NCBI GenBank assembly: GCA_947629725.1
Contig: CANREU010000001.1
Span: 1-40,852, forward strand
Direction: 5' to 3'
DNA from: an uncultured Clostridia bacterium
GTDB taxonomy: Bacteria > Bacillota > Clostridia > Christensenellales > Borkfalkiaceae
DNA: 40,852 nt
Shown here: one piece after another, positions 1,821 to 38,905 of the stretch
Position numbering within the stretch: position 1 is the first letter of the stretch
Layout: each line of letters opens with the position of its first letter
The notes under the pieces: model-generated
Seen by the model: the letters and a program-made list of their open reading frames with translations, nothing else
Told to the model about the DNA's origin: nothing
Databases searched by the model: none
Position numbers and translations under genes: made by a program

Positions 1821-2330
1821 CAAAGCTGCCCCCTTTGAAGGGGCGGGGTATTTCAGCACTTGCCCTCCCCCTGCGTGAGGGGGAGGGACAGGGGTTGCCC
1901 CCGATATTCCGCACCCGCCCATCCCAACCGTGCCCTCCCCCTGCGTCAGGGGGAGGGGTAGGGGTGAGGGTCCGCCCGCGAATTTCGACAGCCACCCCCC
2001 TTGATCCCCCCGCCGAAGGCAGGGGGTTTGCTTTCTGCTCGCCTCGCTTTACGGCCTTCACCTCCTCCTTCGTTTGAGGGGGCGTCGCCTCTTCTCTTGC
2101 CTCCCCCCTTATACTTGAGGGGGGAGGGTAGGGTGGGGGTGGAAAAGCTGCCCCCTTTGAAGGGGGCGGGGCACCTGCGCCTCATACCGAGGGCGCAGCC
2201 CGAGTGTATCTTGAAAGATCCGCTCACTTTGCCTGCGGCTCCGTTCGGAATGGGGGAATACTTGCCCTCCCATACCCCCCTTGCCTCCCCCTCAAGGGGG
2301 CGCCGAGAGAGGGCGTGCTCCCTCTGCGGC
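1821..2330. repeat. mosaic hairpin-repeat cluster A
   Basis: Contains hairpin modules at 1828-1844, 1863-1887, 1933-1957, 2100-2127, 2150-2167 and 2180-2256. All of them recur in other intergenic clusters of this window. Confidence 0.9.
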
Positions 2331-2373
2331 AGGAGGCGGAATTTTTCCGGCGGCCGCCCTTCATTCCCCATTC

Positions 2374-2904
2374 TCAATTCCCGAAAAATTTCCGCACGAG
2401 TTCCGCGATCTTGCTCTTATAAACAATGTTCCCGTTCCCGCCCGAAAAGCAGAGGGGCGGGTATACCACGCACCACCAATTATCCCCCTTGCCCGAGCCG
2501 AGCTCGAGGATGAGCGCGTCGTAAACGCCCGCCTCGAGGGTCGCCCCCTCATACACGCGGGTGGGGAACTCCTCCCTTTTCAGCGACGCGTGCGCGCCGT
2601 AGGAGAACCCGTTCTCGCGGAGGACTTTTTCCGCGACTTCTTCGAGGGCGGGGAGCTCCTGCCCGATCTTCTCCATCGCCTCTTTCTTCCCTTCGCATTC
2701 GGCGACGGCGGGGGTGAGGTATGCGACAACGGCGTCCCGCACCCTGTATTTCACCCGCTGCGCCTCCTCCTCGTTGGAGTCCGCGCGGATATGTACGCGG
2801 AGATAGCGGTCCGCCTCCTGCGGGGTCTTTGCGGGGAGCCCGAAGAGGGCCGCAAGGGCACATGCTGCGCCGAGAAGAAGAAACACGATCGCAAATTTTT
2901 TCAT
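2374..2904 (-). CDS. spoIIR: stage II sporulation protein R
   Basis: MKKFAIVFLLL signal sequence. YLRVHIRADSNEEEAQRVKYRVRDAV and GDNWWCVVYPPLCF match the conserved SpoIIR motifs. A GGAGGTG RBS lies upstream of the ATG at 2904. The longer 279-aa ORF N-terminus is A/P/S-rich and lies upstream of the sigmaF-type promoter candidate at 2928-2956. Confidence 0.85.
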   Translation of the reverse strand: MKKFAIVFLLLGAACALAALFGLPAKTPQEADRYLRVHIRADSNEEEAQRVKYRVRDAVVAYLTPAVAECEGKKEAMEKIGQELPALEEVAEKVLRENGFSYGAHASLKREEFPTRVYEGATLEAGVYDALILELGSGKGDNWWCVVYPPLCFSGGNGNIVYKSKIAELVRKFFGN

Positions 2905-2927
2905 GAGACACACCTCCGTGCGGGGAA

Positions 2928-2956
2928 GGTATTGCCGCGTGAAACTCTTTTTATAC
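2928..2956 (-). promoter_or_regulatory. candidate forespore sigmaF-type promoter of spoIIR
   Basis: Minus strand reads GTATA, a 15-nt spacer, then GGCAATAC. This fits the published sigmaF pattern (GYATA -35, 15-nt spacer, GGnnAnAHTR -10) with one or two mismatches. It is about 20 nt upstream of the RBS. Confidence 0.4.
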
Positions 2957-3025
2957 CTGTAAGAGGGCGGAAAGGGGGGCGCATAAAATTTCCGCCCTTG
3001 CGCACATTGTGCATAGGAGGAAACT

Positions 3026-3753
3026 ATGAAGAAGATTTTGGCAGTCGGCGCGCTGGCGTTTGCGCTCGCCGCAGGCACGGTCGCGGGGGGAACGGTATAC
3101 GCCGCCGTCCGCGCGGAGGATCCCGCGGCGATCGCCGCGGTCACGGAGGCCGCCGTGCTCCGCCAGGGGAGCAGGGCGGCGAGGTGAAGGAAGTCCAGCG
3201 CAGATTGAAGCAATGGGGGTACTATTCGGGCGCGGTAGACGGTATTTTCGGCTCCGCGACGAAGAAGGCGGTCGTCGCGTTCCAGAAGAAGAACGGCCTC
3301 ACGGCAGACGGCATCGTCGGAAAGGCCACCTACAAGGCGCTCGGCATGAACGATTCCTACAACGCCTTAAACGGCACGTCCAACCCCTCCTCGGGCTACA
3401 CCTCGTCCGACCTCTATCTCATGGCGAAGGCGATCTACGCCGAGGGCAGGGGGGAGAGCTACACGGGGCAGGTCGCGATCGGCGCCGTCATCATGAACCG
3501 CGTGAAGAGCCCCTCCTTCCCCAACAGCATCTCGGGGGTCATCTACCAGAAGGGGGCCTTTACGGCGGTGACGGACGGGCAGATCAATTTGGAGCCCAAC
3601 CAAACGGCGTATAACGCCGCGCGGGACGCGATGAACGGGTGGGATCCCACCTACGGATGTCTCTACTACTACAATCCCGCGGTCGCCACGAGCGCGTGGA
3701 TCTTCAACCGCAAGACGGTGACCGTCATCGGCAAGCACGTGTTTGCCATTTAA
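3026..3753 (+). pseudogene. sleB: spore cortex-lytic enzyme SleB, interrupted by one frameshift as sequenced
   Basis: The signal peptide MKKILAVGALAFALAAG... is encoded from ATG 3026 and stops at TGA 3185-3187. The peptidoglycan-binding domain (VKEVQRRLKQWGYYSGAVDGIFG...) and hydrolase_2 domain (AKAIYAEGRGESYTGQVAIGAVIMNRV) lie in the frame of ORF 2281-3753. The switch is at the GGG run 3174-3176. Confidence 0.85.
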
Positions 3754-3762
3754 GGAGGAGTT

Positions 3763-5616
3763 ATGGAAAAGAAAACCGGAAAGAACGTTTCGAGCGGAGC
3801 AAAGAAGGTGGAAACGATCGAGGAGAAGGTCCCGTCTATAGACAAGGCGCCCTCCACCGTCCGCAAGAAGAGGACCGCGGAGGCGGTGAAAAAGGAAAAG
3901 CAGGCGGCGGACAGGCGGGTAGACGCCGCGAAAGCGCGCGCCGAAGAGAAGACGGAACGCCTCGAAAAAAAGGCGGAACTCAAGAAGCGGAAGCTCGAGA
4001 AAAAGGCGGAGATCAAGGCAAAAAAGCTCGAGCACAAGCAAGAGAAGCTCGAAAAGAAGGCGCAGATCAAGGCGAAAAAACTCGAGAAGAAGGCGGAGCG
4101 CGCCGCCCGCCGCGAGGTGCTTTTGAGCGAGAGCAAGGCGGAAAAGAGAAAGCGCGCCGAGCGGGAAAAGCGGGAACGTCTCGCCGCAAAGAGGGAAAAA
4201 CGGGAAGCGCGCGAGCGGGCACGTGAGAAGAAGACCGAGGCGCGGAAAGCGGCGCACGCGAGGAAGGCGGAAGAAAAGAGACGTGCGGCAAGGAGCAAAA
4301 AGAGCGGAGCGGGGGGCTGGATCGCCGCCGTCTCCGTCCTCGGGGCGGCCTGTCTTGCCCTCGCGACCGTCGTCACCGCAGGCGCCCTCCGCATGAACAG
4401 CATGGACCTCGCGGCGGAGAGCGGCTACCGCGCCGCCCTCTATGAGATGGTCTCGAGTTCGGAGGGGCTCGAAAACAGCCTCAACAAACTCCGCGTCGCA
4501 ACGGGGCGGGAGGAGCAGCGGGAGCTCTTCACCGAGGTGCTATTGGACAGCGCGATGATGGAGAGCGCGCTCGAGAAATTCCCCGTCGATCAGGCAACGG
4601 GTGCGGATATTTCGGGCTTTGTCAACCAAACGGGCGCCTTTGCGCGGACGATGCTCGAAAAGCTCGCCGCGGGGGAGAAACTCACGCAGCGGGAGATGAC
4701 CGCCGTCGAGAGCCTGTATGAAGTGAATGCGGGGCTCTCCCGCGAACTCAACGACCTCGCGACCCACCTTTCCCGCAAGGACCTCCGCGCCTTCACGGCG
4801 GGACGGGAGGGGAAGGTCTCCGAGCGCATCACGGGCATGACGGAGTCCGCCAAAGAGAAGTTCGCCGTGACGGACGCCCCCTTCGCGGAACGGGGCAATG
4901 TGGGAACGAACAGGCTCTCCGTCCTCGAAGAGGTCACCCCCGCGCAGGCGGAGGAACGGGTGCGGGAATACCTCAAAAACTACCGCATCGCGGAAGTCAA
5001 GTATACGGGGGAGACCCTCGCGCCCGACATTGCCTGCTACAACTTCGTTCTCACCGATGAGGACGGCAACGAGATCTTTGCCGAGATCACCAAAAACGGC
5101 GGCAAGCTCGCCTTCTTCGACACCTACGAGGAGTGCACGGACAAGAACTTCACCCTCGCCGAGTGCGACGCGCTTGCAAGCGAATTTTTGGGCGGCCTCG
5201 GCTACGGCGATCTCGAGGCGGTGTGGCTCTCCGACGGCGGCATGATCGCCAACCTCACCTATGTGAGCTGCGAGGACGGCGTGCGCGCCTACCCCGACAC
5301 GGTGCGGGTGCGGGTGTGCGAATCGAAGGGGCGGGTCGTCGGCGTCGACATGAAGGCGTATCTTTTGAACCACGCCTCCCGTGACTACGGCGGGCAGATC
5401 TCCCGCGACGCGGCGGAAGAGGCGCTCTCCCCCCGTCTTGCCGCAAAGGCTTGCAACCTCGCCCTCATCTCCCTCCGCGGGGAGGAGACCCTCTGCTACG
5501 AGTTCCTCTGCGCTTGCGGGGAGGAGGAATTCCTCTCCTATGTAGACGCGAAGAGCGGCGAAGAAGTCGCGCTCTACCGCGTCCGCGAGAGTGCACAGGG
5601 CAGCTACCTTGAATGA
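3763..5616 (+). CDS. ypeB: germination protein YpeB with a long K/E-rich N-terminal extension
   Basis: Lies directly downstream of sleB, as in the Bacillus sleB-ypeB operon. Single TM segment (WIAAVSVLGAACLALATVVTAGA) followed by a YpeB-like ectodomain with PepSY-like C-terminal repeats. Confidence 0.75.
   Translation: MEKKTGKNVSSGAKKVETIEEKVPSIDKAPSTVRKKRTAEAVKKEKQAADRRVDAAKARAEEKTERLEKKAELKKRKLEKKAEIKAKKLEHKQEKLEKKAQIKAKKLEKKAERAARREVLLSESKAEKRKRAEREKRERLAAKREKREARERAREKKTEARKAAHARKAEEKRRAARSKKSGAGGWIAAVSVLGAACLALATVVTAGALRMNSMDLAAESGYRAALYEMVSSSEGLENSLNKLRVATGREEQRELFTEVLLDSAMMESALEKFPVDQATGADISGFVNQTGAFARTMLEKLAAGEKLTQREMTAVESLYEVNAGLSRELNDLATHLSRKDLRAFTAGREGKVSERITGMTESAKEKFAVTDAPFAERGNVGTNRLSVLEEVTPAQAEERVREYLKNYRIAEVKYTGETLAPDIACYNFVLTDEDGNEIFAEITKNGGKLAFFDTYEECTDKNFTLAECDALASEFLGGLGYGDLEAVWLSDGGMIANLTYVSCEDGVRAYPDTVRVRVCESKGRVVGVDMKAYLLNHASRDYGGQISRDAAEEALSPRLAAKACNLALISLRGEETLCYEFLCACGEEEFLSYVDAKSGEEVALYRVRESAQGSYLE
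3961..4113 (+). repeat. in-frame tandem repeat, 33-nt period (11-aa KLEKKAEIKAK units), inside ypeB
   Basis: Units start with CTCGA(A/G) at 3961, 3994, 4027 (a truncated 21-nt unit), 4048 and 4081. Confidence 0.8.
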
Positions 5617-5622
5617 ACAAAG

Positions 5623-5653
5623 ATCCTCCGAAGTCCCCTTCGGAGGATTTTTC
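5623..5653 (+). terminator. intrinsic terminator after ypeB
   Basis: ATCCTCCGAAG-TCCC-CTTCGGAGGAT (11-bp stem) followed by TTTTT. Confidence 0.9.
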
Positions 5654-5674: not shown

Positions 5675-6122
5675 GCGTATGCCCCCTCCGTTGGAGGGGG
5701 GCAGGGGGGTGGGCGGCAAGACCTGCCCCCTTTGAAGGGGGCGGCTCCCCCGCTTGCGGGGGTGGTGGGGGTTGCCCACGACACTCCGCCTCCGCATATC
5801 CCGAGCTTGCCCTCCCCCTGCGTCAGGGGGAGGGGTAGGGGTGAGGGTTGCCCGTAAATTTCCACCTCCCTTGATCCCCCCGCTAAAGGCAGGGGGTTTG
5901 CTCTCTGCGTGCCCCGACTTGCGGGTTTCACCTCCTCCCTCGTTTGAGGGTGGGGGGGAGCACCTGCTCCTCATACCGAGCGTAGCGAGTGTATCTTGAA
6001 AGATTCACTCACTCCGCCTACGGCTCCGTTCGGAATGAGGGGAGGGCTGGGCGGAACGAGGGGAACTTGCCCTCGTCCCGGCCGCCCCTTGCCTTCCCCT
6101 CGGGGGGAAGGCTTGCGGCGGC
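5675..6122. repeat. mosaic hairpin-repeat cluster B
   Basis: Modules at 5682-5700, 5725-5742, 5810-5834, 5864-5908, 5969-6040 and 6092-6111. The stretch 5768-6040 is collinear with cluster A 1891-2256. Confidence 0.9.
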
Positions 6123-6193: not shown

Positions 6194-6222
6194 TTGACAA
6201 TCCGCCGCAAAGGGAGTACAAT
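6194..6222 (+). promoter_or_regulatory. sigmaA-type promoter of the flavin reductase gene
   Basis: TTGACA (6194-6199), 17-nt spacer, TACAAT (6217-6222). Confidence 0.7.
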
Positions 6223-6849: not shown

Positions 6850-7743
6850 ATGAAGAAGGGTCTTTGCGTTTGTGCGGCGATCCTGTTTGCCGCGCTCGGC
6901 GCCGCGGGATGCGGTGCGGACGAAAAACCTGCAAAGGAGAAAGTTTTGCGGGTGCTCGGGCCGGACTTCAAGTATGAGACGGCACACTACGAACACACCG
7001 TCGGATACGTCGATAACGGGAAGGAGATCGCGCTTTCGGGGACGGTGTACGAACCCGATGCGAGCGGCAAGTTTCCCGCCGTCATTTTGAGCCACGGGTT
7101 CAACGGGCACGGCTACGATTTTACGGAGGAGTGCCGTAGATTTGCCGAGAGGGGGTACATCTGCTATGCGTTCGATTTCTGCGGCGCGCAGAAAAACGGC
7201 GGGAGCACGGGAAGGACGGCGGAAGAGTACACTCCCTTCACGATGAAGGAGGACCTTCTGCACGTCATCGAGGCGATCGGGAAACTCTCCAATGTGGACA
7301 AGTCCCAGATCTTCCTCTTCGGCGGAAGCCAGGGGGGACTTGTCACCCTGCTCGCGGCGGCGGACGAGGCGGTGAAAGAGAAGATCGCGGGGGTCGCGAC
7401 CTACTTCCCCGCCCTCAATATCCCCGACGATTGGAAAGATAAGCCCGAGGAAACGACCCCGCTCATGGGTTACTATATCGGCGCGGAGTTCATCCGCTCG
7501 GTGCAAAATTTCGATCCCTACGAGGTCATCGGGGAATATAAAGGAGACGTGTGCATCGTGTGGGGAGACAAAGACGAGCTCGTCCGCAGGGAATATATCG
7601 ACCGCGCAACGGAAGTCTTCGGAACGCGCGCAGAGCTCACCGTTTTGAGCGGGGCGGGGCACGGGTTCGGCGGCGCCGATCTCGACAAGGCGATCGGGAC
7701 GGTGCTCGCCTTCCTCGAGGCGCGTACCTACACCTATCGATAA
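6850..7743 (+). CDS. alpha/beta hydrolase, predicted lipoprotein
   Basis: Lipobox LGAAGC. Nucleophile elbow GGSQGG. Later WGDKDELV and GAGHGF fit a Ser-Asp-His triad. Confidence 0.75.
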   Translation: MKKGLCVCAAILFAALGAAGCGADEKPAKEKVLRVLGPDFKYETAHYEHTVGYVDNGKEIALSGTVYEPDASGKFPAVILSHGFNGHGYDFTEECRRFAERGYICYAFDFCGAQKNGGSTGRTAEEYTPFTMKEDLLHVIEAIGKLSNVDKSQIFLFGGSQGGLVTLLAAADEAVKEKIAGVATYFPALNIPDDWKDKPEETTPLMGYYIGAEFIRSVQNFDPYEVIGEYKGDVCIVWGDKDELVRREYIDRATEVFGTRAELTVLSGAGHGFGGADLDKAIGTVLAFLEARTYTYR

Positions 7744-9932: not shown

Positions 9933-10184
9933 ATGATCCATTCCATGAGCGGCGGGGTCCTTTCGGACGGCTCCGTCTACACCTTTGCGAAGGTGGAAGC
10001 GGGCGGCGTGCCCCGCTGGTACCTCGCCCCCTTCCCCGTCTCGGAGGGAATGAAGGTCGTCGTCCCCTGCGGGCGGGAGCTTGCGGAGGGGACGGTCGTC
10101 CGCGTCGAGACTTGCACGCGGCAGACGGCGCCCGTTCCCGTCTCCCGCGCACAAGAACTTGCGGGATATGCGCAAAAGGGTTGA
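9933..10184 (+). CDS. small hypothetical protein (83 aa)
   Basis: Strong GAGGAGGG RBS 5 nt before the ATG. Operonic with cls. Codon usage is like the neighbouring genes. I cannot name a family. Confidence 0.55.
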   Translation: MIHSMSGGVLSDGSVYTFAKVEAGGVPRWYLAPFPVSEGMKVVVPCGRELAEGTVVRVETCTRQTAPVPVSRAQELAGYAQKG

Positions 10185-10209
10185 CAAGATCTTTCCGGCG
10201 CGGTATAAT
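10181..10209 (+). promoter_or_regulatory. sigmaA-type promoter driving the Mn riboswitch leader
   Basis: TTGACA (10181-10186), 17-nt spacer, TATAAT (10204-10209). The -35 overlaps the stop codon of the preceding ORF. Confidence 0.75.
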
Positions 10210-10218
10210 AAGTAAAGT

Positions 10219-10308
10219 CGTAGGGGAGTAATCGGCCCGCAAGGGCGGTATCGTCCACATTCTGCGGAACATTTCCGCGGGCGCTATCACAAAACGGTGA
10301 GACTTACG
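10219..10308 (+). promoter_or_regulatory. yybP-ykoY-type Mn2+ riboswitch aptamer (candidate)
   Basis: P1 strands CGUAGG (10219-10224) and CUUACG (10303-10308). GGAGUA follows the 5' P1 strand and GAGA precedes the 3' strand, as in the L. lactis yybP-ykoY RNA. Internal hairpins GCCC-GCAA-GGGC and GCGGAA-CAU-UUCCGC, and an ACAU element. The next gene downstream is mntP. Confidence 0.7.
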
Positions 10309-10340
10309 CACGGTTTTTTCCGTGCGCAAGTCTTTTTTCT
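10307..10340 (+). terminator. riboswitch expression-platform terminator
   Basis: CGCACGG-TTTTTT-CCGTGCG followed by CAAGTCTTTTTTCTT. The 5' arm overlaps the 3' P1 strand of the aptamer. Confidence 0.75.
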
Positions 10341-10354: not shown

Positions 10355-10790
10355 CCTTATAAGAGCACCCCCCACCCTGCCCTCCCCCCTCAAGTATAAG
10401 GGGGGAGGCAAGAGGGCGGGCGACGCCCCCTCAAGTATAAGGGGGGAGGCAAGAGGGCGGGCGACGCCCTCCCCTCAAACAAGGGAGGCGGTGAGAGCCG
10501 TAAATCGGGGCGTGCGAAAAAGCAAACCCCCTGCCTTTGGCGGGGGGACTAAGGGGGGTGCCTCCCCAAGTATAAGGGGGAAGGCGAGAGCGAACGCCCT
10601 GCCCCCTCCATAGGAGGGGGTGTCCCGCAGGGACGAGGGTGGGCATGCCCGATCGCCGTCCCACCCCCTGCCCCCCCCTCACGTAGGGGGAGGGCATGCC
10701 CGCAAGAGGGGAAGCGCCCCTGTTTCTTGCCCTCCCCCATATTGTCCGCAATATGGGGGAGGGGTAGGGGAGGGGGCGAACCGCAATCCA
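10355..10790. repeat. mosaic hairpin-repeat cluster C, inside the mntP leader
   Basis: Inverted-orientation copies of cluster A/B modules (10381-10408, 10513-10560, 10602-10620, 10671-10694). A 41-nt tandem duplication (10386-10426 and 10427-10467). A 14-bp-stem variant hairpin at 10730-10763. Confidence 0.9.
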
Positions 10791-10806
10791 CCAGAAGGAG
10801 GAAATC

Positions 10807-11391
10807 ATGTCGATTTGGGAGATCGCACTCATCGGCATCGCGCTCGCGATGGACGCCTGCGCCGTCGGTATGACGGACGGCATGGCGGAGCCGCGCATGT
10901 CCGCCGCAAAGGCGCTTTTGATCGCGGGGACGTTCGCCCTCTTTCAAGCGGGCATGCCCCTCTTGGGGTACTATTGCGGCGCCGCCTTTTCCTCCCTCGT
11001 CGCAAAGATCGCCCCCTACCTCTCCTTTGCGGTCCTCACGGCGATCGGCGGGAAGTCGGCCGTCGAATACTTCCGCGGGAGGGGAAAGAGGGAGACCTTC
11101 TCCCCCCGCGCTCCCCTCGGGGCAGGGAAACTCCTAGTGCAGGCAGTCGCGACCTCGATCGACGCGCTCGCCGTCGGGGTCACCCTCCTCGCGGCGGAGA
11201 CGGAGGGCGGGCTCCCCTTCCACGTCCTCTTCTGCGCCGCCGTCATCGGCGCCGTCACCTTCGTTCTCTCGGCGGGCTCGGTGCTCGTCGGCAAAAAGGC
11301 GGGGGACGCCCTCGCGGGCAAGGCGGAGCTCGCGGGGGGGATCATCCTCATCGCCATCGGCGTAAAACTCCTCCTCGAGGGGGTTCTTTGA
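10807..11391 (+). CDS. mntP: manganese efflux pump MntP
   Basis: Two DUF204-type repeats with the AMDACAVGM and SIDALAVGV motifs. About six TM segments. GGAGGA RBS. Confidence 0.9.
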   Translation: MSIWEIALIGIALAMDACAVGMTDGMAEPRMSAAKALLIAGTFALFQAGMPLLGYYCGAAFSSLVAKIAPYLSFAVLTAIGGKSAVEYFRGRGKRETFSPRAPLGAGKLLVQAVATSIDALAVGVTLLAAETEGGLPFHVLFCAAVIGAVTFVLSAGSVLVGKKAGDALAGKAELAGGIILIAIGVKLLLEGVL

Positions 11392-18909: not shown

Positions 18910-18916
18910 GATCGGG

Positions 18917-18947
18917 GCGGCGGGAACATCCCCGCCGCTTTTTCTTT
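18917..18947 (+). terminator. intrinsic terminator after the rbr unit
   Basis: GCGGCGGG-AACATC-CCCGCCGC followed by TTTTTCTTT. Confidence 0.85.
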
Positions 18948-23418: not shown

Positions 23419-23439
23419 CACACGCCTCCTTATTTTTCG

Positions 23440-23468
23440 ATTATAACACCCGCAGAAGAGCAAGTCAA
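23440..23468 (-). promoter_or_regulatory. sigmaA-type promoter of the helicase gene
   Basis: Minus strand reads TTGACT (23463-23468), 17-nt spacer, TATAAT (23440-23445). Confidence 0.7.
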
Positions 23469-23484: not shown

Positions 23485-23800
23485 AGAAAGCCCTTCCCTT
23501 CCGTTGGAAGGGTGCCGAAGGCATGCCTTGCGCTGAGGGTGGCACGGCTTGCCGTGACGGATGGGGATGGGGTATGACGATCGATAATCCCCACCACCCC
23601 CGCAAGCGGGGGAGCCTCCCCCTTGAAAAGGGGTAGGCCTTTCGCTGTTTGCCGCCGTACTTCTGCCCTCGCTCTGCTTTGGGGCGCCGAGAAGGGGGTC
23701 CGAGCAAGCTGCCCTCGCCCTCCTTTGGGGGACGAGGGGTAGGGGTGCGGGGGGTGCCCCCTCCGCGGAGGGGGGGGTAGGGGGGTGGGCGGCGGAAAAG
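23485..23800. repeat. mosaic hairpin-repeat cluster E
   Basis: GTGCCGAAGGCATGCCTTGCGCTG (23512-23535, also at 38524-38547). CCCCCGC-AAG-CGGGGG (compare 5746-5766). G-rich GGGGTAGGGGTG tails. Confidence 0.85.
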
Positions 23801-23854: not shown

Positions 23855-24958
23855 TTATTTCTGATGGTCGGTGAAGCCGGTGTTGTAGAGCTCGTCAGGG
23901 TCGAAGTCGAAGATCGGCTTTCCGTTCCTGTCGAAGTCCACCTTCATCACGTGGGCGTGGCGGTTGTAGTCGTAGAGGCTGTTCCCGTCGCCGCCCTGAA
24001 TGTTGGGATAGTCGCGGAAGTGGAGCATGCACAAGAGCTCGCCCTTGTCCCCCTCCACGAAGCAGTTGTGCCCGGGACCGTAGATCTTGCGGGACGCGTC
24101 CGTTCGGAACACGGGCTCGGGCGATTTCGTCCAGTTGCTCTTTTCGAGGGGATCGTCGCAGGCGTCGATCTCGAGCATGCCCATGCAGTAGGCGGCGTTG
24201 GTCGCCGCGGCGGAGTAGGTGACGAAGATCTTCCCGCCGTGTTTCATCACCGCGGGGCCCTCATTCACAGACTGTCCGCCCGCGCGCTCCCAGTCGTAGT
24301 CGGGGCGGGTGAGGAGCATGGACTTCGTCTTCAGGGTGAGGGGGTCCTCCATCTCGGCGAGGTAGAGGTTGGAGGAGTTGGGCTTCTGCGCCCAGATCGC
24401 ATACCACTTGCCCGCGTTTTCAAACACCGTCATATCGAGGCACATGCCGCTGTTGTTGGAGAAGCTGTCCCCTTCGGCGACCTTGATCTTGCCCATATAC
24501 TCCCAGTCGTCGTGCATGGGGTCGTCCCCCTTGCATTGCAGGGCGTAGCACTTGATGTCCCAATCGCCGTTTTCGCTCGCGGCGTAGTAGATGACCCACT
24601 TGCCCATGACATAGTGGATCTCGGGCGCCCACACGTGGTGCGTGGTGGAGGGGGCGGTCCAAATCGTCTTGGGAGTGGCCGCCGCGATGCCGTTCACCGA
24701 GTCCGCCGAGGTGAGCTCGATACGGTCGTAGAGGGGATGGGAGCCCGTGAAGTAGTAGGTGCCCGTCTCACTGTCTTTGTAGAGATAGGGATCGGCGCGG
24801 AGGGTGACGAGAGGGGAGAGGTAGTCCCCGTTCACCTCCGAGGAGGCCGTCTCCGCTTGCGCGAGAGGGGTTTCTTCTTTGATTTCGGCGGCGCTCACCC
24901 CCGCGAGGGCGGCCGCGCAGAACGCCACAGCGCCGACAAGACCCAAGAACCGTTTCAT
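23855..24958 (-). CDS. secreted glycoside hydrolase family 43 (beta-xylosidase/alpha-L-arabinofuranosidase type)
   Basis: Signal peptide MKRFLGLVGAVAFCAAALAGVSA. HVWAPEIHY, WYAIWAQ and NEGPAVMKHGGKIFVTYSA are characteristic GH43 five-bladed propeller motifs. Confidence 0.85.
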   Translation of the reverse strand: MKRFLGLVGAVAFCAAALAGVSAAEIKEETPLAQAETASSEVNGDYLSPLVTLRADPYLYKDSETGTYYFTGSHPLYDRIELTSADSVNGIAAATPKTIWTAPSTTHHVWAPEIHYVMGKWVIYYAASENGDWDIKCYALQCKGDDPMHDDWEYMGKIKVAEGDSFSNNSGMCLDMTVFENAGKWYAIWAQKPNSSNLYLAEMEDPLTLKTKSMLLTRPDYDWERAGGQSVNEGPAVMKHGGKIFVTYSAAATNAAYCMGMLEIDACDDPLEKSNWTKSPEPVFRTDASRKIYGPGHNCFVEGDKGELLCMLHFRDYPNIQGGDGNSLYDYNRHAHVMKVDFDRNGKPIFDFDPDELYNTGFTDHQK

Positions 24959-25144
24959 GCGTTCCTCCTTCCGCGTTCCCGCATGCGGAAACGCGCGATA
25001 TTATACTAACACAGCATTTTGGAAAAATCAATAGATCTCCCCCGATTTTTGTATGGACGAAACTGCCTTTTTTTATCAAAGATATGGACATATTATACTA
25101 TTTTATGTTACTTCATTCTCACCTCAAAATAAGGGAGGAAAAGG

Positions 25145-28100: not shown

Positions 28101-29360
28101 GACGACAACTACGCGGCGACCTTCACCTACAACCAGGCGACCCACGTCGCCACGGTGCGCTGCTCCTACACCCTCTTCCCCGCCTTCGACAGGATCTACA
28201 CGATCCGCTTTGAGACGAAGAGCGAGGAGACCTTCCTCTCCATGCAGGTGACGGGCGGCAAGAGCCCCCTCGCCCTCACGCCCGCGGACTTTGGGACGGA
28301 CGTCGAGGTCGCGGTGGAGAGCCTCACGAGCTTCTCCCTCACGGTGCGCCTCACCCTTGCGGCGGGCGCGGCGGGGACGGCGGAGCGCGTCTACACCCAA
28401 GCCGACCTCGAGGGCGGCAAGCTGAAGATCGAGGTCACGAACGAGAACGGGGAGACGAAGGCGTACTACTTAAAGCCCGTCGCCCTCTCCTCGGAGGCCT
28501 CCCTTTCCGCCCTTTCGGCGGGGACCTTCTCCCTTTCGCCTGCCTTCTCCGCGACGGAGACCGAATACACCGTCACCGTGAACAAGGGGCAGGGCGAGGA
28601 AGTCTTCAAGGCACTCACCTTCACGGCGGCAAGCGGCGGGACGGCGGAAAAAGTGTATGACGTCGGCTCGCACAAGATAACGGTCACCGTCACCTCGGCC
28701 GACGGTTCGGCGAGGAAAGTCTACACCGTCACCCTCGCAGAGCTCGACACCGACGCGGCGCTCTCGGGCATCACGGTCGGCGGAAAGCCCCTCGAAGGGT
28801 TCGATCCCGACAAGACGGCCTACACCGTGAAATACAAGGGCACCCTTCCCGAAGTGAACGGCACGCCCCGTTCCTCTTCGGCGGACGTCGCCGTCTCGCA
28901 GCCCCAAAACGGGACGGTGAAGATCACGGTCACGGCAGAGAGCGGCGATGAGAAGGAATACACCGTCACCCTCGTGCAGATGAGTGCGGACGCGTCCCTT
29001 ATAAAGCTCACCCTGAACGGCGTTGAGATCGCCATAACGGACGGTGCGGGCAGCTACACGGCCCCCGCGGGCGTCTCGCTCGGGCAGATCGCGGTCTATG
29101 CGGAAGTTGCGGAGGGCGCGAGCTACGCCTGCAAGGCGGAACAAAGCAGCATCGTCATCACCGTTACTGCGGAGGACGGCACCCAAAAGACGTACACCGT
29201 CGCCGTCACCTTCTCCGCTCCCACCCCCGCAGGGGACGGGACGGAGGATAACAGCCCGAAGGAGGGCTGCGGCGGCGTGCTCGGCGGCGCGGGGATCGCG
29301 GCTGCGATCGCGCTCCTTGCGGGAGCGGGGCTCGCCGTCTCGAAGAAACGCAAAGGTTGA
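25145..29360 (+). pseudogene. giant C-terminally anchored surface protein (two LamG-like domains plus multiple cadherin-like beta-sandwich repeats), interrupted by one frameshift as sequenced
   Basis: Signal peptide at 25145. The first LamG-like domain ends ...DDFRIYSG, then the frame stops at 26065. The frame of ORF 26103-29360 is already open upstream and reads EDGTALYKEYKGIKAIHGKTVKLEGE from 26043. Repeats of the type DAALSGITVGGKPLEGFDPDKTAYTVKY. C-terminal TM plus KKRKG. Confidence 0.8.
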
Positions 29361-29373
29361 GGGAGGAATACCT

Positions 29374-31842
29374 ATGGATCGTAAATTTGGGATCGCAAAA
29401 ATTTGCCTTCTCACGCTGCTTTCCGCCACGGTAGCCGTGGCGGCGGCGGGGTGCGGCGGCAAGCACACGCACAGCTATTCGGAGGCGTGGGCGTTCGACG
29501 CCGAGGCGCACTGGCACCCGTCCACCTGCTCGCACGACACGAAGACGGGCAAGGGCGAACACGTCTTTACGGAGACCGTCATCCCTCCGACCGGGACCTC
29601 CGCGGGCTACACCCTGCACGCCTGCGCCTGCGGGTATGCCTATATCGCCGACGAAAAGTCTCCCCTTCCTCCCGAAGAGAGCGGGGAATACCGCTACGAC
29701 GGCACGAGCCACTGGAAGCCCGTCACCGAGGGGGAGAGGGACATTTCGGGCCACATCTACCGCGATGATACCGTCGCGCCCACCTGCTACGGGGCGGGCT
29801 ACACCAAACACACCTGCACGGTGTGCGGGTATTGGTATGCAGACGCGCCCGTAGACCCCGTCGCCCACACCGTGAGCGAGGGGGTCATGGCGCACGACGA
29901 GACCTCCCACTGGCAGCCCTGCTCCGTCTGCGGGGCGAAAGTGAACGTCACGGGGCACTCCCTCCGCGAGGACGTCACCCCGCCCTCCTGCGACAAGGGC
30001 GGCTACACCGACTTCACCTGCGAGGAATGCGGCTACACCTTCCGCGGCAGGGAGACGGGCGCGCAGCACGCCTATTCGGAGACCTTCGAGGGCAACGAAT
30101 ACGAGCATTGGCGCTCCTGCAAGAACGACGGCGAGAAGACGGACGTCGGCGAGCACGTGTTTGAAGGGCACAGCAACGTCTGCGCCATCTGCGGGAAGAC
30201 CGTCACCCCCCGCATCTCCTACAAGCTCTGCGGCGAGTACTACGCCGTGACGGGGATCGGCAGCCTTGCGGGGACGGAGGTCACCGTGCCCGCGGAATAC
30301 AACGGAAAGCCCGTGAAGGAGATCGCGGAGCGCGCCTTCGTCAACGAAAAACTCACCGCCCTCACCCTCGGGGGGAGCAACCTCGAGAAGATCGGCGCGC
30401 AGGCGTTCATGGGGACGGACATCGCCGCCCTCACCCTTCCCTCGAGCGTGCAGACGGTCGGCGCGAAGGCATTCGCGGGGACGAAGATCGGCTCCCTCTC
30501 CCTCGGTTCCGCCGTGAAGAGTTTGGGGCAGGGCGCCTTCGAGGGCTGCGCCTCCTTGCAGACGGTGACGATCGAGAGTCTCACCTCTCTCCCCGTCTCC
30601 GCCTTTGAGGGCTGCATTTCCCTGACGTCGGTGACCTGTACCCAAAAACTCACCGGGATCGGCGACCTCGCCTTCAACGGCTGCACCCTTCTTGATACCC
30701 TCGATTTGAGCGGCGCGGAGACGCTCGGGTTCTCGGCGTTCGGCGGCTGCGCGGCGTTCGCCCCCGCAGATCTTTCCGCCCTCACCTCCGCGGGCGAATA
30801 CGCCCTCTCGGGCACGGCGCTCGAAAACGCCGCCCTTCCCGCGGGTCTTGCGGAGATCCCCGCCCGCCTCTTCCTCGGCTGCGAAAAGCTCCATACGGTC
30901 ACGTCTTCCGCACAAACGGTGGGCAAAGAGGCGTTCAAAGACTGCGCCCTCCTCTCTTCCGTCACCCTCACGGGGACCCTCTCTCTGGAGGAGAGCGCCT
31001 TTGCGGGCTGCACCGCTCTCAACACCCTCGAACTTCCCGAAACCATCACCCATGTGGGCGAAAACGCCTTCACGGGGACGGGGCTCGTGAAAGCGGAGGG
31101 CGGAGTGAATTACGTCGGGAACGTCGCCGTGGGGCTCGAAAGCGGCACGTCGGTCTCCTTGAAGGAGACGGCGGTTGTCGTTGCGGACGGCGCCTTCCGC
31201 GATACGAAGATCACGGCGGTCACCCTCGGGGCGGGCGTGAAATCCATCGGCGCGGACGCCTTCCGCGGCTGTGCGATCTCCGCGATCGACTTCAAGAATG
31301 TGAAAACGATCGGCGCGAACGCCTTCCGCGAGAGCGGGCTCGTCTCCGTCACGGTCCCCGCCACGGTGGACACGGTGGGGGACAACGCCTTCTACGACTG
31401 CAAGTCGCTCACGGCGGTGAACGTCAGCGCGAAGAACATCGGCAAGTTCGCCTTCTCCTACACGGGCACGGGCAGGACGCTCGATTCCCCCGAGAAGGAG
31501 AGACCCGACTACGCGCACCTTGCAACGCTCACGATCGGCGCGGGCGTGCAGACCATCGGGAGCAACGCCTTCCAGTATGCGCCCATAACGGAGGTCACCC
31601 TCCCCGCGGGCCTTACTTCGATCGGCAAATACGCCTTTGCGCACACCGACCTTGCGGGCATCTCCATTCCCGCGGAGGTCACGCGGATCGGCGGATATGC
31701 GTTCTATAAGACGCAGCTTTCCACCGCGGCCTTCTCTCAGGCGGAGAATTGGACGGCGGGCGGCGCGGCGCTTTCTCTCGGCGACGCCGCAGGGAATGCG
31801 GCACAGCTCAAGGCTTCCACCATCGATTGGGTGAGGGGGTAA
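29374..31842 (+). CDS. lipoprotein with Cys/His-rich modules and a long BspA-type leucine-rich-repeat domain
   Basis: ATG 29374 after a GGGAGGAA RBS. Lipobox AAAGC. Four HW...C/H modules (aa 30-277). Then more than 15 units of AFxGCxxLxxVxLP-type LRR. Confidence 0.8.
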   Translation: MDRKFGIAKICLLTLLSATVAVAAAGCGGKHTHSYSEAWAFDAEAHWHPSTCSHDTKTGKGEHVFTETVIPPTGTSAGYTLHACACGYAYIADEKSPLPPEESGEYRYDGTSHWKPVTEGERDISGHIYRDDTVAPTCYGAGYTKHTCTVCGYWYADAPVDPVAHTVSEGVMAHDETSHWQPCSVCGAKVNVTGHSLREDVTPPSCDKGGYTDFTCEECGYTFRGRETGAQHAYSETFEGNEYEHWRSCKNDGEKTDVGEHVFEGHSNVCAICGKTVTPRISYKLCGEYYAVTGIGSLAGTEVTVPAEYNGKPVKEIAERAFVNEKLTALTLGGSNLEKIGAQAFMGTDIAALTLPSSVQTVGAKAFAGTKIGSLSLGSAVKSLGQGAFEGCASLQTVTIESLTSLPVSAFEGCISLTSVTCTQKLTGIGDLAFNGCTLLDTLDLSGAETLGFSAFGGCAAFAPADLSALTSAGEYALSGTALENAALPAGLAEIPARLFLGCEKLHTVTSSAQTVGKEAFKDCALLSSVTLTGTLSLEESAFAGCTALNTLELPETITHVGENAFTGTGLVKAEGGVNYVGNVAVGLESGTSVSLKETAVVVADGAFRDTKITAVTLGAGVKSIGADAFRGCAISAIDFKNVKTIGANAFRESGLVSVTVPATVDTVGDNAFYDCKSLTAVNVSAKNIGKFAFSYTGTGRTLDSPEKERPDYAHLATLTIGAGVQTIGSNAFQYAPITEVTLPAGLTSIGKYAFAHTDLAGISIPAEVTRIGGYAFYKTQLSTAAFSQAENWTAGGAALSLGDAAGNAAQLKASTIDWVRG

Positions 31843-34096: not shown

Positions 34097-34134
34097 TTGC
34101 GCCCGGATGCACCCGCATCCGGGCGCAATTTTTT
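34097..34134 (+). terminator. intrinsic terminator ending the surface-protein operon
   Basis: TTGCGCCCGGATGC-ACCC-GCATCCGGGCGCAA (14-bp stem) followed by TTTTTT. Confidence 0.9.
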
Positions 34135-34139
34135 CGCGG

Positions 34140-34545
34140 CGGATCTCCCTTCTTCGCCCCGTTTCCCGCTCTTGCTTCCCCCTTTTGGGGCGCGAGGGGT
34201 GTTCGTTTTCCGCTCCCGCACATCCAAACCGTGCCCTCCCCCTACGTGAGGGGGAGGGGTGGGGGTGAGGGTTCGCCCATGAATTGCAGTATGCCCCTCA
34301 TCCGTCCCCCGTGGGGACACCTTCCCCCCGAGGGGGGAAGGCTTGCAACGCCGTGCGAAAGCCCCTCCGCAGGAGGGGGGTAGGGCGGCCTCTTTCCTCT
34401 TGCCTCCCCCCTTATACTTGGAGGGTAGGGCGGCCTCTTTCCTCTTGCTTCCCGCTTATACTTGGGGGGTAGGGCCGCGGCTTTCCTCTTGCCTCCCCCC
34501 TTATACTTGAGGGGGGAGGGTAGGGTGGGGGGTGCAACAAAAGGG
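34140..34545. repeat. mosaic hairpin-repeat cluster F
   Basis: Modules at 34234-34258 and 34320-34341. Three tandem 44-51-nt TTATACTTG-loop units (starting 34381, 34426 and 34470), of which only the last keeps an intact stem (34492-34519). Confidence 0.9.
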
Positions 34546-34763: not shown

Positions 34764-34792
34764 TTGACATCCGCGGGAAGGCGGAGTATAAT
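34764..34792 (+). promoter_or_regulatory. consensus sigmaA promoter of the hybrid kinase/SBP unit
   Basis: TTGACA (34764-34769), 17-nt spacer, TATAAT (34787-34792). Confidence 0.8.
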
Positions 34793-37060: not shown

Positions 37061-37062
37061 AT

Positions 37063-38400
37063 ATGAAAAAAATCGCGACCCTTGTTGCACTTTCCGCCCT
37101 CTTGCTCTTCACGGCGTGCGCGCCGCGGACGCCCGCCGTCCCAGAAGATACGAACGGGAAGAAGGAGAAAGCGGCGATCACCCTCTGGACCTATCCCATC
37201 GGCGGATGGGCGACGGCGAGCTCCGTCTCTCCCATCCTCACCTCCTTCCGCATCGCCCACCCCGAGATCTCGGTCTCCGTTGAGTATGTGAGTTACGCCG
37301 GCGCCGAGGACCCCCACAGCGGTGACACGATGATCGAGAACGCCATCGAAAACGGGGGGCTGCCCGACGTCGTCTTCGAGGGGCCCGAGCGGCTCGTCGC
37401 GAACTGGGGCGCGCGCGGTCTCATGGCTCCCCTCAACGACCTTTGGGAGGATGAGACGGCGAAGGAGGTCGACAGCCGCGTCGCGGAAGCCTGCCATGAC
37501 TCGGAGGGGAACTACTACGTCGTCCCCCTGTGCATGACCACCCACTGCATGGCGGTCAACCGCAATGTCTTCGAGCAGGCGAACGCCCTTCAATATCTTG
37601 ATATAGAGACCCGCACTTGGACGGCGGACGGCTTCCAAAAGGCCGTCGCCGCCATCAAGGCGTATTACGACGGGCTGGAGGCGCAAGGCGAAACGCACAG
37701 GGACGTTGCCGCCGTCTATTGCGAAGGCAAGGGGGGAGACCAGGGCACCCGCGCCCTCGTCAACAACCTCTGCGGCGGGCGGTTCACCGACGCGGCGCAT
37801 ACGAAGTACACCGTGAACTCCGAGGAGAACATCGAGGCGCTCACCCTCCTTAAAGGGATGGAAGGGATCAGGTTCGACCCCGCGCTCGACGGCACGAAGG
37901 AGCACGAAGCCTTCTGCGCGGGCGAGCTCGCCATGTCCTTCTGCTGGAACGTGGCGGTGGAGAACAGCCAGCTCAAAAACCACCCCGACATCGATTTTGA
38001 CATTTTGCCGATGGCGTTCCCCTCGCAGAACGGAACGGATCCCAAGCTGCAGGGCGGCATTTGGGGGTTCGGCGTCTTTGATAACGGCGACGAGGCCCGC
38101 CTCAAAGCGGCGAAGACGTTCATCCGCTTCCTCACGGAGACGGACTACACCCGCGCCGTCACCGTATCCTCCTATTCGCCCGTGCGGGAGATCTCTCCCG
38201 ACCCCTACGCGAACGACGCCCTCATGACGGAATACGCCATCTTCAAGAACTATTTCGGCGATTTCTATCAGATCACGCCCGAGTGGGACAGCGCGCGCAC
38301 CGCGTGGTGCACCCTCCTGCAAGAGGTGGGGAGCGGCGCGGACATCCGCACGGCGCTGGGAAAGTTCCCCGAGACCTTCTCCGCCGTGAAGGAGAACTGA
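37063..38400 (+). CDS. ABC-type extracellular solute-binding lipoprotein (family 1, sugar type), with no cognate permease genes adjacent
   Basis: ATG 37063 lies 3 nt after the kinase stop. Lipobox LLFTAC. ITLWTYPIGGW... and overall length are typical of family-1 carbohydrate-binding proteins. Confidence 0.8.
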   Translation: MKKIATLVALSALLLFTACAPRTPAVPEDTNGKKEKAAITLWTYPIGGWATASSVSPILTSFRIAHPEISVSVEYVSYAGAEDPHSGDTMIENAIENGGLPDVVFEGPERLVANWGARGLMAPLNDLWEDETAKEVDSRVAEACHDSEGNYYVVPLCMTTHCMAVNRNVFEQANALQYLDIETRTWTADGFQKAVAAIKAYYDGLEAQGETHRDVAAVYCEGKGGDQGTRALVNNLCGGRFTDAAHTKYTVNSEENIEALTLLKGMEGIRFDPALDGTKEHEAFCAGELAMSFCWNVAVENSQLKNHPDIDFDILPMAFPSQNGTDPKLQGGIWGFGVFDNGDEARLKAAKTFIRFLTETDYTRAVTVSSYSPVREISPDPYANDALMTEYAIFKNYFGDFYQITPEWDSARTAWCTLLQEVGSGADIRTALGKFPETFSAVKEN

Positions 38401-38457
38401 CCGCATAAGGTTTCCGAAGCGCATATAATAGACCATACGAAAGAGCATACGACCGAA

Positions 38458-38482
38458 AACGCCCGCCCGCGGGCGTTTTTTC
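38458..38482 (+). terminator. intrinsic terminator after the SBP gene
   Basis: AACGCCC-GCCCGC-GGGCGTT followed by TTTTT. Confidence 0.8.
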
Positions 38483-38494
38483 ATTCTCTCGTCC

Positions 38495-38905
38495 CCAGCC
38501 CACTTACCTTCTCCCCTTTTGGGGTGCCGAAGGCATGCCTTGCGCTGGGCGGGGTAGGGGTTGCCCACGATTTCCGCCCCGCATATCCCGAGCGTGCCCT
38601 CCCCCTGCGTCAGGGGGAGGGGTACTTCGTCGCTTTGCTCCTCGTGTCGCCCTTCGATAACATTCATGGCGTGCGGGCGATAGGGGTGAGGGTCCGTCCT
38701 CGACGTTGCGAATTGCCCCTCATTCGTCCCCTGCGGGGACACCTTCCCCCCGAGAGGGGGAAGGCTTTCGGTGGGACGGGGGCGCGCGTTTTCACCTCCT
38801 CCCTCGTTTGAGGGGGTGGGCGCTCTTTCTCTTGCCTCCCCCCTTATACTTGAGGGGGGAGGGCAGGGTGGGGGAACGAGACCTTCCCCCTTTGAAGAGC
38901 ACGGG
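38495..38905. repeat. mosaic hairpin-repeat cluster G
   Basis: Modules at 38524-38547, 38597-38621, 38752-38774 and 38835-38862. A 58-nt insertion at 38625-38682 splits an otherwise conserved GGGGTAGGGGTGAGGG tail. Confidence 0.9.

Follow-up and report, generated by a model that had tools for sequence, protein, structure and literature searches.

Repetitive extragenic palindromic (REP) repeats are best known from Proteobacteria. In the canonical element a GTAG tetranucleotide lies 5′ of the palindrome, and this order is recognised by the Escherichia coli REP-associated tyrosine transposase (RAYT); Nunvar in 2010 and Messing in 2012 are said to have described this recognition of the 5′-GTAG arrangement. 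Most REPs belong to GTAG-tagged or CGTC-tagged superfamilies, with 6-13-bp stems and variable loops, and they are mostly extragenic, clustered downstream of open reading frames (ORFs) between co-directional or convergent genes (PMC3733652). GTAG-tagged REPs and REP doublets forming hairpins (REPINs) are mobilised by RAYTs in Proteobacteria, Cyanobacteria and the Planctomycetes-Verrucomicrobia-Chlamydiae group (PMC3733652, PMC3116915). The 2013 survey of tagged palindromes by Di Nocera et al. listed no Firmicutes (PMC3733652), and RAYT group 1 is known from Clostridia (PMC5581495). Here, we analysed a 40,852-nucleotide (nt) stretch of DNA, hereafter the window, from a metagenome-assembled genome (MAG) of an uncultured Clostridia bacterium (assembly GCA_947629725.1, contig CANREU010000001.1). 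The host is spore-forming, with SleB, YpeB and SpoIIR encoded in the window, and has 62% GC. Seven intergenic gaps of the window are filled with clusters of short GC-rich hairpin modules, named A to K in Table 1. We consider it very probable that these modules form a real population of REP-like repeat elements, shared with related genomes.

An initial annotation had described the seven gaps as mosaics of one vocabulary of hairpins. Direct reading of the sequence confirmed the gaps and all the listed modules in their places, as did a pattern search that allowed up to two mismatches and was controlled with 100 dinucleotide-style shuffles. The pattern search found five copies of CCCTCCCCC-TGCGTCA-GGGGGAGGG (starting at 1863, 1933, 5810, 34234 and 38597), four of the TTATACTTGA module (at 2100, 34492 and 38835, and inverted at 10381), three of GCCCCCTTTGAAGGGGGC, five of CCCCCTCC-NNN-GGAGGGGG, two of GTGCCGAAGGCATGCCTTGCGCTG and two of each end of the long-stem unit. 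The shuffles gave 0.00-0.09 expected copies per pattern, and the copies are thus far more numerous than chance would allow. The CCTTCCCCCC-GA-GGGGGGAAGG copies at 6092 and 38752 differ by insertions or deletions (indels), yet they are recognisable on direct reading. The clusters total 2,903 nt, or 7.1% of the window, in agreement with the earlier estimate of about 2.9 kb. When the window was compared with itself by BLAST, 2,062 nt proved to be repeated; apart from an internal duplication at 31237-31330 in a BspA-type leucine-rich-repeat gene (29044-31842), all of this lay in the seven gaps.

The modules fall into two structural classes: i) stem-loops with C-rich and G-rich arms that run from (C)TTG to GTAG and a G-tract, and ii) palindromes with a terminal CGTC or CCTC, often arranged head-to-head. 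The first class is typified by module A, which folds at -17 kcal/mol (z = -2.8). Anchoring 77 copies on the hairpin revealed sharp edges and a unit of ∼51 nt, with the consensus (T/C)CTTG, CCCTCCCCC-TGCGTCA-GGGGGAGGG, GTAG and then GGG(A/TG)GGGGTCCGCCC. Most hairpin modules start with (C)TTG, perfect stems measure 7-11 bp, and module hairpins fold at z-scores of -2 to -8, those with the REP-like short stem at -2 to -4. Stem pairs covary between families and loops are free, as in CCCTCCCCC/GGGGGAGGG, CCTCCCCCC/GGGGGGAGG and CCCCCTCC/GGAGGGGG, and further compensating pairs are CTTCCCCC/GGGGGAAG, CCCACCCC/GGGGTGGG and GCTCCCCC/GGGGGAGC; module E alone has at least 14 distinct triloops across the loci described below. 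Since every variant of the C-arm has a complementary G-arm of its own and the loops vary, the hairpin itself is the conserved feature.

Perfect hairpins (stem of at least 7 bp) with the C-rich arm first outnumbered those with the G-rich arm first by 25 to 2 in the window, and by 224 to 26 when the related loci fetched for module A matches were included. The C-arm/G-arm polarity of the initial annotation is thus real, but a hairpin with a C-rich 5′ arm is identical on both strands, so that this trait defines no orientation. Of 90 A-family hairpins, 71 had a GTAG no more than 3 nt from the stem, as did 30 of 130 other C-first hairpins, against a background of about 1.8%. Because the G-arm continues into the GTAG-G-tract tail, each such module contains a predicted G-quadruplex motif. 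Sixteen of the 17 G-quadruplex motifs of the window fall in the clusters (chance expectation, about 3.7 per strand), and the hairpin and the predicted G-quadruplex would compete for one G-rich arm.

In the second class, the long-stem units at 2180 and 5969 read CCTC-ATACCGAG, with mismatches in the stems. Both are head-to-head dimers (2180-2256 and 5969-6040) that fold as long imperfect hairpins (z = -3.7 for 5965-6044), and a 183-nt example was found in a related locus (L005). The CGTC-type unit at 19192-19253 folds at -27.6 kcal/mol (z = -8.1); it exists in an uninterrupted form in another relative (L021). The copies of composite J are 85% identical and have no significant structure (z = -0.6). 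Modules D and A together make a ∼125-nt super-unit, also present in Lapin-023__bin33.

All seven clusters are extragenic and follow ORFs, in gaps whose flanking genes are co-directional or convergent, as REPs do. None occupies a gap between divergent genes; the divergent gap at 24958-25145 has no modules. Within their gaps, the clusters start 3′ of the terminator of the upstream gene and end 5′ of the next promoter or ribosome-binding site (RBS). The modules of cluster 5 are on the + strand between two minus-strand genes, antisense to both, and therefore module orientation is not simply that of the neighbouring transcripts.

The stem-loops of the first class resemble GTAG-tagged REPs in many respects. 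Both are 20-50-nt stem-loops with 6-13-bp stems, complementary stem variants and variable loops; both have a conserved unpaired GTAG adjoining the stem and no transposase within the element; and both occur in many copies, clustered 3′ of ORFs between co-directional or convergent genes, with occasional in-frame intragenic copies. The elements described here differ in their 5′ (C)TTG, in the G-tract tail with its G-quadruplex motif and in arms that are strictly C-rich and then G-rich. In addition, their host is a member of the Clostridia, of a phylum outside the 2013 survey, and no RAYT flanked by them was seen in about 560 kb of window plus loci. Given the position of the tag (3′ of the stem, see below), the tandem units, the G-quadruplex tail and the lack of a RAYT in the DNA surveyed, we regard them as a new REP-like variant and not as members of a described family.

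CGTC-tagged REPs are characterised by a terminal CGTC, TGTC or CCTC, an 8-9-bp stem starting with AT and a short unpaired CCA-like tail, and comprise CGTC-1 to CGTC-4, including Neisseria dRS3 and Rickettsia RPE-4/RPE-6; intragenic translated REPs exist among them and others, including in tRNA synthetase genes (PMC3733652). The units at 19192-19253, 2180-2256 and 5969-6040 are similar in the terminal CGTC/CCTC, the AT-starting stem, the CCCA tail, the head-to-head long hairpins, the lack of an associated transposase and the intragenic translated copies in relatives (e.g., HPERSEGS...DSSALPQNDTAS), a likeness that is one of anatomy only and was drawn against the published text description. They differ in their internal stem mismatches, longer loops, nested hairpins and interleaving with the C/G family. 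The failure of the initial annotation to name a family holds in that no module matched Rfam, but not entirely, given the CGTC-REP anatomy of these units and the GTAG tag of the C/G hairpins.

Other systems are more distant. Like the bacterial interspersed mosaic elements (BIMEs) of E. coli, the clusters are intergenic mosaics located after genes and assembled from a small vocabulary of palindromic units and linkers. In BIMEs, however, Y and Z REPs of inverted orientation take turns with defined linkers, several of them bound by integration host factor (IHF), whereas here the order is free, the units are mostly co-oriented, the arrays are far longer (300-500 nt) and at least 10 families are mixed. 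The Rickettsia palindromic elements (RPE-1 and others) are likewise found in frame in housekeeping genes, including those for tRNA synthetases and repair proteins, where translation turns them into additional surface peptides. RPE-1, AT-rich and 100-150 nt in length, resides in an obligate intracellular alphaproteobacterium; composition and size set it apart from the ∼51-nt, extremely GC-rich units of a free-living gut Firmicutes. The GC clusters and 'byp' elements of yeast mitochondria are short GC-rich hairpins that nest and cluster in spacers and coding sequence. Unlike these, the present elements have a bacterial host, and their intragenic copies keep the frame, with lengths divisible by three and no stops. 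Palindrome-associated transposable elements (PATEs) and MITEs (miniature transposable elements with inverted repeats) derived from IS200/IS605 share the hairpin basis, the non-autonomous state and possibly targeting to a short motif and a link to the lagging-strand template, but here the left and right ends are not distinct, long terminal inverted repeats are lacking, no parent insertion sequence is known and a single candidate duplication was seen (TA at module K). We also considered and rejected four further readings: a CRISPR array, as spacers are not periodic; attC sites, as a GTTRRRY core was not seen; intrinsic terminators, as the module hairpins are not followed by a T-run; and translational bypass, as frame and length are preserved.

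Module A was then used to scan one genome per species, and loci were selected by an exact 25-nt core. Among the matches listed, it was present at 64 loci or more (L001-L064), in at least 19 species of 'uncultured Clostridia' MAGs from rabbit gut. The 64 fetched loci contained at least 72 further copies; with one locus per match, this is a floor and not an independent count. Most of the other window modules recur in these loci. Many of the matches are only some dozens of bases away from the end of a contig, and the repeats therefore break the short-read MAG assemblies of this clade. Blocks of at least 70 nt common to the window and its relatives are 72-94% identical, those of 100-160 nt 79-89%, and shorter ones up to 94-97%; the best hits are 87-97% identical, and DNA identity is 80-97% overall. 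The proteins are far more diverged, with orthologues 50-70% identical and the YpeB of the window at most 57% identical to any homologue, with no exact copy of this protein on record. Rfam 15 gave nothing at the gathering score and only two chance microRNA matches at E ≤ 1. The two modules searched in viral contigs gave no match, plasmid and phage collections gave none either, and in JGI metagenomes module B had no match and module A one. A literature search on module strings retrieved no paper that contained them. An 82-amino acid module-encoded peptide had seven candidates in the protein database, none scoring, low-complexity words being probably unindexed.

All window copies are intergenic, and it is the relatives that provide copies within genes. 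Their in-frame status was established from ORFs spanning the inserts and from Pfam, because a simple gene caller based on GC3 (GC content at third codon positions) broke genes up where an insert occurs. In the MAG loci, roughly one in three copies of module A is intragenic, in conserved genes and always in sense orientation. These copies are always read in the frame that gives S-CPPPASGGGVGEGVRP; module A has four open frames out of six, and the same one is used at no fewer than eight independent sites. Since the frame is kept and stop codons are absent, these copies are read through and not bypassed. Pfam domain matches continue through the insert in CopA, TatD, RseP (peptidase M50) and RsmF. 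In the CopA-type ATPase the insert lies within the HAD domain, just past the phosphorylation motif DKTATLTEGKPKV, and one CopA orthologue lacks it at that site, the difference being 17 codons. In methionyl-tRNA synthetase (MetRS) the insert occupies the linker preceding the tRNA-binding domain. Module H, too, is read inside MetRS in relatives, as the peptide LPLKGAPRG.

In TatD (homologues P0121-P0133), the site directly after GIHPEFA is a hotspot. We surveyed 120 homologues, about 11 of which exceed the 247-255-amino acid norm, and examined these 11 together with three of ordinary length. Nine of the 11 long homologues carry differing module-encoded peptides at this site, with at least six different inserts of 13 to >100 amino acids, and one protein has 356 residues as compared with about 250. 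The inserts include entire long hairpins of the CGTC type, read as HPERSEGS...DSSALPQNDTAS. At orthologous coding sites the element, considered outside the part fixed by the choice of loci through the exact 25-nt core, is 91-97% identical between species, whereas the adjacent coding sequence is 69-87% identical.

The mntP leader provides a filled site that can be compared with empty ones. The promoter at 10181-10209 is a perfect sigma-70-type promoter. It is followed by a yybP-ykoY Mn2+ riboswitch (20 bits, E = 5.5e-4, under the Rfam gathering score, with the motifs GGGGAGUA and GGUGAGAC conserved) and a terminator, and the whole unit is kept 5′ of mntP in two syntenic relatives (L065 and L066). 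There, about 30 nt separate the terminator from the mntP start, as compared with about 440 nt of modules in the window. Since promoter, riboswitch and terminator are conserved, cluster 3 is a filled site. No C-first hairpin was detected in the 34 kb that the two relatives comprise together, and their spacers at cluster-equivalent positions measure 93-223 nt.

Module K occurs at a GGGGTA/TAGGGG junction four times (one case in the window, two in L014 and one in L052), and each time a TA stands on either side of it. In L014 (minus strand) the nesting has three levels, an E-type hairpin with a G-tail lying within K, and K within the GGGGTAGGGG tail of A; the stretch is at 6928-7062 of the reverse-complemented locus (0-based), or about 939-1072 of the + strand if the locus is 8000 nt long. 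Module F interrupts D or I hairpins, and is inverted within the D hairpin in L029 and L004. A 38-nt GC hairpin is lodged in the loop of the CGTC-type unit. For modules A-E, no consistent target-site duplication was found, and apart from the arms of the hairpins there are no inverted repeats. Repeat-module indels of 36, 51, 54, 99, 114 and 183 nt distinguish pairs of species with 91-93% identity, the intragenic ones being multiples of three. Signs of slippage were also seen: truncated units stand head-to-tail, 5′ of an intact unit, and one duplication of 41 nt (10385-10425 and 10426-10466, 100% identity), equivalent to the truncated B array, is exact and shows recent slippage. Taken together, the nesting of modules and the indels that separate close species indicate insertion, to which slippage was added locally.

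We hypothesize that the clusters consist of lineage-specific, non-autonomous REP-like miniature elements that were inserted in trans, survived at harmless sites and expanded by slippage, and on the whole, mechanism included, this is the likely explanation. The elements would fold as single-stranded DNA hairpins, and an enzyme encoded elsewhere in the genome, for which a RAYT/IS200-type HUH tyrosine transposase is the leading candidate, would cut and paste or copy them. New copies would prefer existing hairpins and tails or their vicinity, such as the TA of GGGGTAGGGG. They would persist only where harmless: in the window, in the stretch from terminator to promoter or RBS, and in relatives also in protein linkers and loops, in the single sense frame that gives a Pro/Gly-rich peptide. 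Slippage at G-runs might then add truncated head-to-tail units, and repeated insertion would build the mosaics. We infer the single-stranded DNA route, the enzyme and the mainly selfish character of the elements; taken alone, a RAYT-like route has somewhat less than an even chance of being correct.

Several observations weigh against this hypothesis. Pfam scans of all sizeable ORFs of the window revealed no transposase, RAYT or integrase, as the initial annotation had stated. A tblastn search for RAYT/IS200 TnpA in about 560 kb of window and loci yielded nothing below E = 0.8, a weak test made with approximate query sequences and on genome samples only. GTAG is on the 3′ side of the stem in 101 hairpins and the 5′-GTAG-stem-loop order occurs in 2 of 130, so that the tag is the mirror image of the canonical arrangement. 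Where REPINs are inverted pairs, the C/G units are single or head-to-tail (the A copies at 1863 and 1933 form a direct repeat with a spacing of 70 nt, and the B arrays are head-to-tail). The enzyme would have to recognise at least 10 different sequence families, and for CGTC REPs no transposase is known (PMC3733652). Neither a clean target-site duplication, other than the TA flanking module K, nor an excision footprint was observed. The interspecies indels could equally be deletions between repeats. Finally, the conservation of the elements above that of the neighbouring coding sequence, together with their strict sense orientation, could reflect selection.

Selection is the basis of the first alternative, which the initial annotation had already set beside a BIME/REP-like non-autonomous mosaic. 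The mosaic is supported by the high copy number, sharing, nesting and presence or absence of modules, by the broken MAG contigs, by the lack of an Rfam match and by the location in non-coding stretches without a nearby transposase, and the selected structural system is retained as an unlikely rival. The modules would serve in insulation, in pausing or backup termination, in stabilisation of mRNA 3′ ends or in gyrase or nucleoid binding, as E. coli REPs and BIMEs do. Six of the seven clusters lie exactly between a terminator and the next promoter, 16 of the 17 G-quadruplex motifs are within clusters, and the sequence is kept better than neighbouring coding DNA, all of which a selected role would explain, together with the excess of copies co-oriented with both flanking genes (35) over copies opposed to both (2). 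Oriented stems with one mismatch, examined for a wobble-pair asymmetry that would indicate selection on RNA, have T.G rather than C.A by 6 to 0, too few informative stems to carry weight. Against such a role, the syntenic relatives manage with module-free spacers of 30-220 nt, and module order, number and orientation are different in every cluster, with cluster 5 antisense to both neighbours and most of cluster 3 inverted. Being mostly 3′ of a terminator, the clusters should be poorly transcribed. Moreover, the nested and truncated copies resemble accumulated debris, and an insulator makes no sense for units inside coding sequences.

A second alternative, which we consider less probable still, dispenses with transposition: the modules would spread only by gene conversion, slippage, template switching and the stalling that hairpins or G-quadruplexes cause. 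Such events would produce the truncated head-to-tail units, the exact 41-nt duplicate included, and are consistent with a 36-nt unit indel bordered by direct repeats, with a 114-nt indel bounded by repeated CGAAGGATCCC and with the homogeneity of copies across species; no transposase was found among the window ORFs or by the weak tblastn search of about 560 kb. Slippage cannot, however, bring an initial copy to new, unique sites, among them the coding sequences for TatD, CopA, RseP and MetRS and the mntP leader, and it leaves unexplained the precise recurrent insertion of K at the same TA in different genomes and the nesting of unrelated modules in hairpins.

That the clusters encode structured non-coding RNAs, either small RNA genes or riboswitch-like leaders, or a CRISPR-like array, is very improbable. 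The hairpins are stable and cluster 3 is within a transcribed leader, but no Rfam match beyond chance microRNAs and no regular repeat-spacer periodicity were found, no promoter precedes the clusters, most of which follow a terminator, and the units occur in both orientations and within coding sequences. An artefact of assembly or binning is the least credible account: the window is apparently one whole 40,852-nt MAG contig and the repeats sit at many contig ends elsewhere, but no fewer than 19 MAGs, assembled independently from different samples, contain these modules, in intact reading frames with Pfam domains kept, and every cluster is bordered by unique, syntenic genes.

Returning to the hypothesis of mobile REP-like elements, we tentatively propose a bolder version of it, which we consider possible but doubtful as a whole: an undescribed, clade-wide class of miniature elements with the structure (C)TTG-hairpin-GTAG-G-tract, a hairpin/G-quadruplex switch and the mirror arrangement of canonical REPs, which some enzyme so far not associated with REPs would move as single-stranded DNA and which would colonise terminator-to-promoter gaps as well as, in one sense frame, linkers and loops of essential proteins such as MetRS, TatD, CopA, RsmF and RseP. 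If this were true, the elements would continually supply the proteins of free-living bacteria with Pro/Gly-rich inserts on a large scale. The in-frame elements in housekeeping genes of the relatives extend a known kind of system, and the TatD hotspot offers a case for studying how proteins tolerate recurrent in-frame insertion. The tag on the opposite side of the hairpin and the interleaving of GTAG-type and CGTC-type units in the same clusters bear on REP recognition, and the rivalry of hairpin and G-quadruplex for one G-rich arm may have a bearing on mobility or on the host. In practical terms, the repeats fragment MAG assemblies and yield spurious or extended ORF calls in gut-microbiome catalogues.

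Table 1. Repeat modules, predicted G-quadruplex motifs, clusters and landmarks of the window (N, any nucleotide)
Feature	Position	Strand	Sequence, contents or limits
Module A, reference	1929-1977	+	cGTG-CCCTCCCCC-TGCGTCA-GGGGGAGGG-GTAG-GGGTGAGGGTCCGCCC
Module A, further copies	1859-1895, 5806-5853, 34230-34278	+	
Module A, split copy	38593-38624 and 38683-38697		
Module A, degenerate copy	10662-10700		inverted
Module B	2094-2143	+	CTCTTG-CCTCCCCCC-TTATACTTGA-GGGGGGAGG-GTAG-GGTGGGGG
Module B, further copies	34486-34533, 38829-38875	+	
Module B, inverted copy	10365-10414		inverted
Truncated B pair	34396-34485	+	head-to-tail, 5′ of intact B; 3′-arm G-run deleted
Module C	2148-2170	+	CTGCCCCC-TTTGAA-GGGGGCGGGG
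Module C, further copies	1826-1848, 5723-5745		
Module C, degenerate copy	38883-38900		
Module D composite	34290-34343	+	GCCCCTCATCCGTCCCC-NNN-GGGGAC-A-CCTTCCCCCC-GA-GGGGGGAAGG
Module D composite, second copy	38714-38766		
Lone D hairpin	6088-6113		
Module E	5680-5703	+	TG-CCCCCTCC-NNN-GGAGGGGG-CA, free triloop
Module E, further copies	10600-10622, 19294-19316, 23755-23790, 34361-34379		
Module F	23512-23535	+	GTGCCGAAGGCATGCCTTGCGCTG, near-palindrome
Module F, second copy	38524-38547		inside I-type hairpin
Long-stem unit G	2180-2256	+	head-to-head dimer of CGTC-type (here CCTC-AT...) palindromes
Long-stem unit G, second copy	5969-6040		
CGTC-type unit	19192-19253	+	CGTC-ATCCTGAG...CGAAGGAT-CCCA; loop holds nested 38-nt perfect GC hairpin
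Module H	2283-2312	+	(G)CTCCCCC-NNNN-GGGGGCGCCGAGAG
Module H, further copies	19128-19165; 23670-23695 (degenerate)		
Composite J	1992-2080	+	CCACCCCCCTTGATCCCCCCGCCGAAGGCAGGGGGTTTGC...CACCTCCTCCTTCGTTTGAGGG
Composite J, further copies	5862-5950; 10466-10560 (inverted); 38790-38815 (partial)		
Module K	38625-38682	+	58 nt inserted in an A copy, at the TA of its GGGGTAGGGG tail; TA on either side
G-quadruplex motif	1949-1970	+	3′ arm and tail, GGGGGAGGGGTAGGGGTGAGGG
G-quadruplex motifs	2119-2139, 5826-5847, 10755-10776, 23727-23754, 23770-23789, 34250-34271, 34511-34532, 38854-38874	+	
G-quadruplex motifs	10368-10389, 10660-10678	minus	
Cluster 1	1822-2330	+	YjbR terminator (about 1780-1808) to 3′ end of convergent SpoIIR (2374-3213, minus); order C, A, A, J, B, C, G long hairpin, H
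Cluster 2	5680-6122	+	YpeB terminator (5623-5648 and T-run) to promoter 6194-6222; order E, C, A, J, G long hairpin, D
mntP leader	10181-10340	+	promoter 10181-10209, yybP-ykoY Mn2+ riboswitch 10211-10338, terminator
Cluster 3	10355-10780	mixed	in mntP leader, Mn-riboswitch terminator (10300-10340) to RBS/ATG 10790-10808; block 10365-10700 inverted (B, truncated B, J, degenerate B, E, A), final module 10726-10776 forward
Cluster 4	18951-19325	+	terminator 18914-18941 to promoter 19393-19421; three CTTCCCCC-TTTT-GGGGGAAG units, one H, one CGTC-type, one E
Cluster 5	23485-23800	+	GH43 terminator (23839-23824) to promoter of UvrD-like gene (23468-23440), both genes minus-strand
Cluster 6	34164-34545	+	terminator 34097-34128 to promoter 34764-34792; I unit, A-D composite, E, two truncated B and one full B
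Cluster 7	38505-38905	+	terminator about 38459-38482 to TTGCAT...TATAAT promoter about 39037-39066; I split by F, A split by K, D, partial J, B, degenerate C

Some genes of the window deserve comment. SpoIIR, which adjoins cluster 1 on the minus strand, is on the same strand as SleB and YpeB in the two syntenic relatives (689-1219 in L066 and 2862-3395 in L065), which points to a local inversion or rearrangement beside cluster 1. The extent of SleB is overstated by a 490-amino acid ORF (2281-3753), the protein having about 250 residues in relatives. YpeB (also P0002, P0005 and P0110) has a Lys/Glu/Ala-rich N-terminal extension of ∼200 amino acids (3763-4400 in the window) before YPEB_N, conserved clade-wide in length and character and unrelated to the modules.

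Two other genes appear to be interrupted. The mnmA gene (53-1134) is apparently frameshifted, with the HUP domain in ORF 53-907 and the M and C domains in ORF 226-1134, owing either to loss of the gene's function as a pseudogene or to a fault in the MAG assembly. On the minus strand, a UvrD-like helicase (20562-23463) that contains an RNase T-type exonuclease domain internally is covered by the overlapping ORFs 21004-23463 and 20562-21215, and the presence of the UvrD_C end in the latter suggests another frameshift. Finally, a 774-amino acid histidine kinase/response regulator ORF was called from a GTG at 34736. A perfect TTGACA-17-TATAAT promoter is located past this codon, at 34764-34792, and the true start of the kinase must therefore be further downstream.

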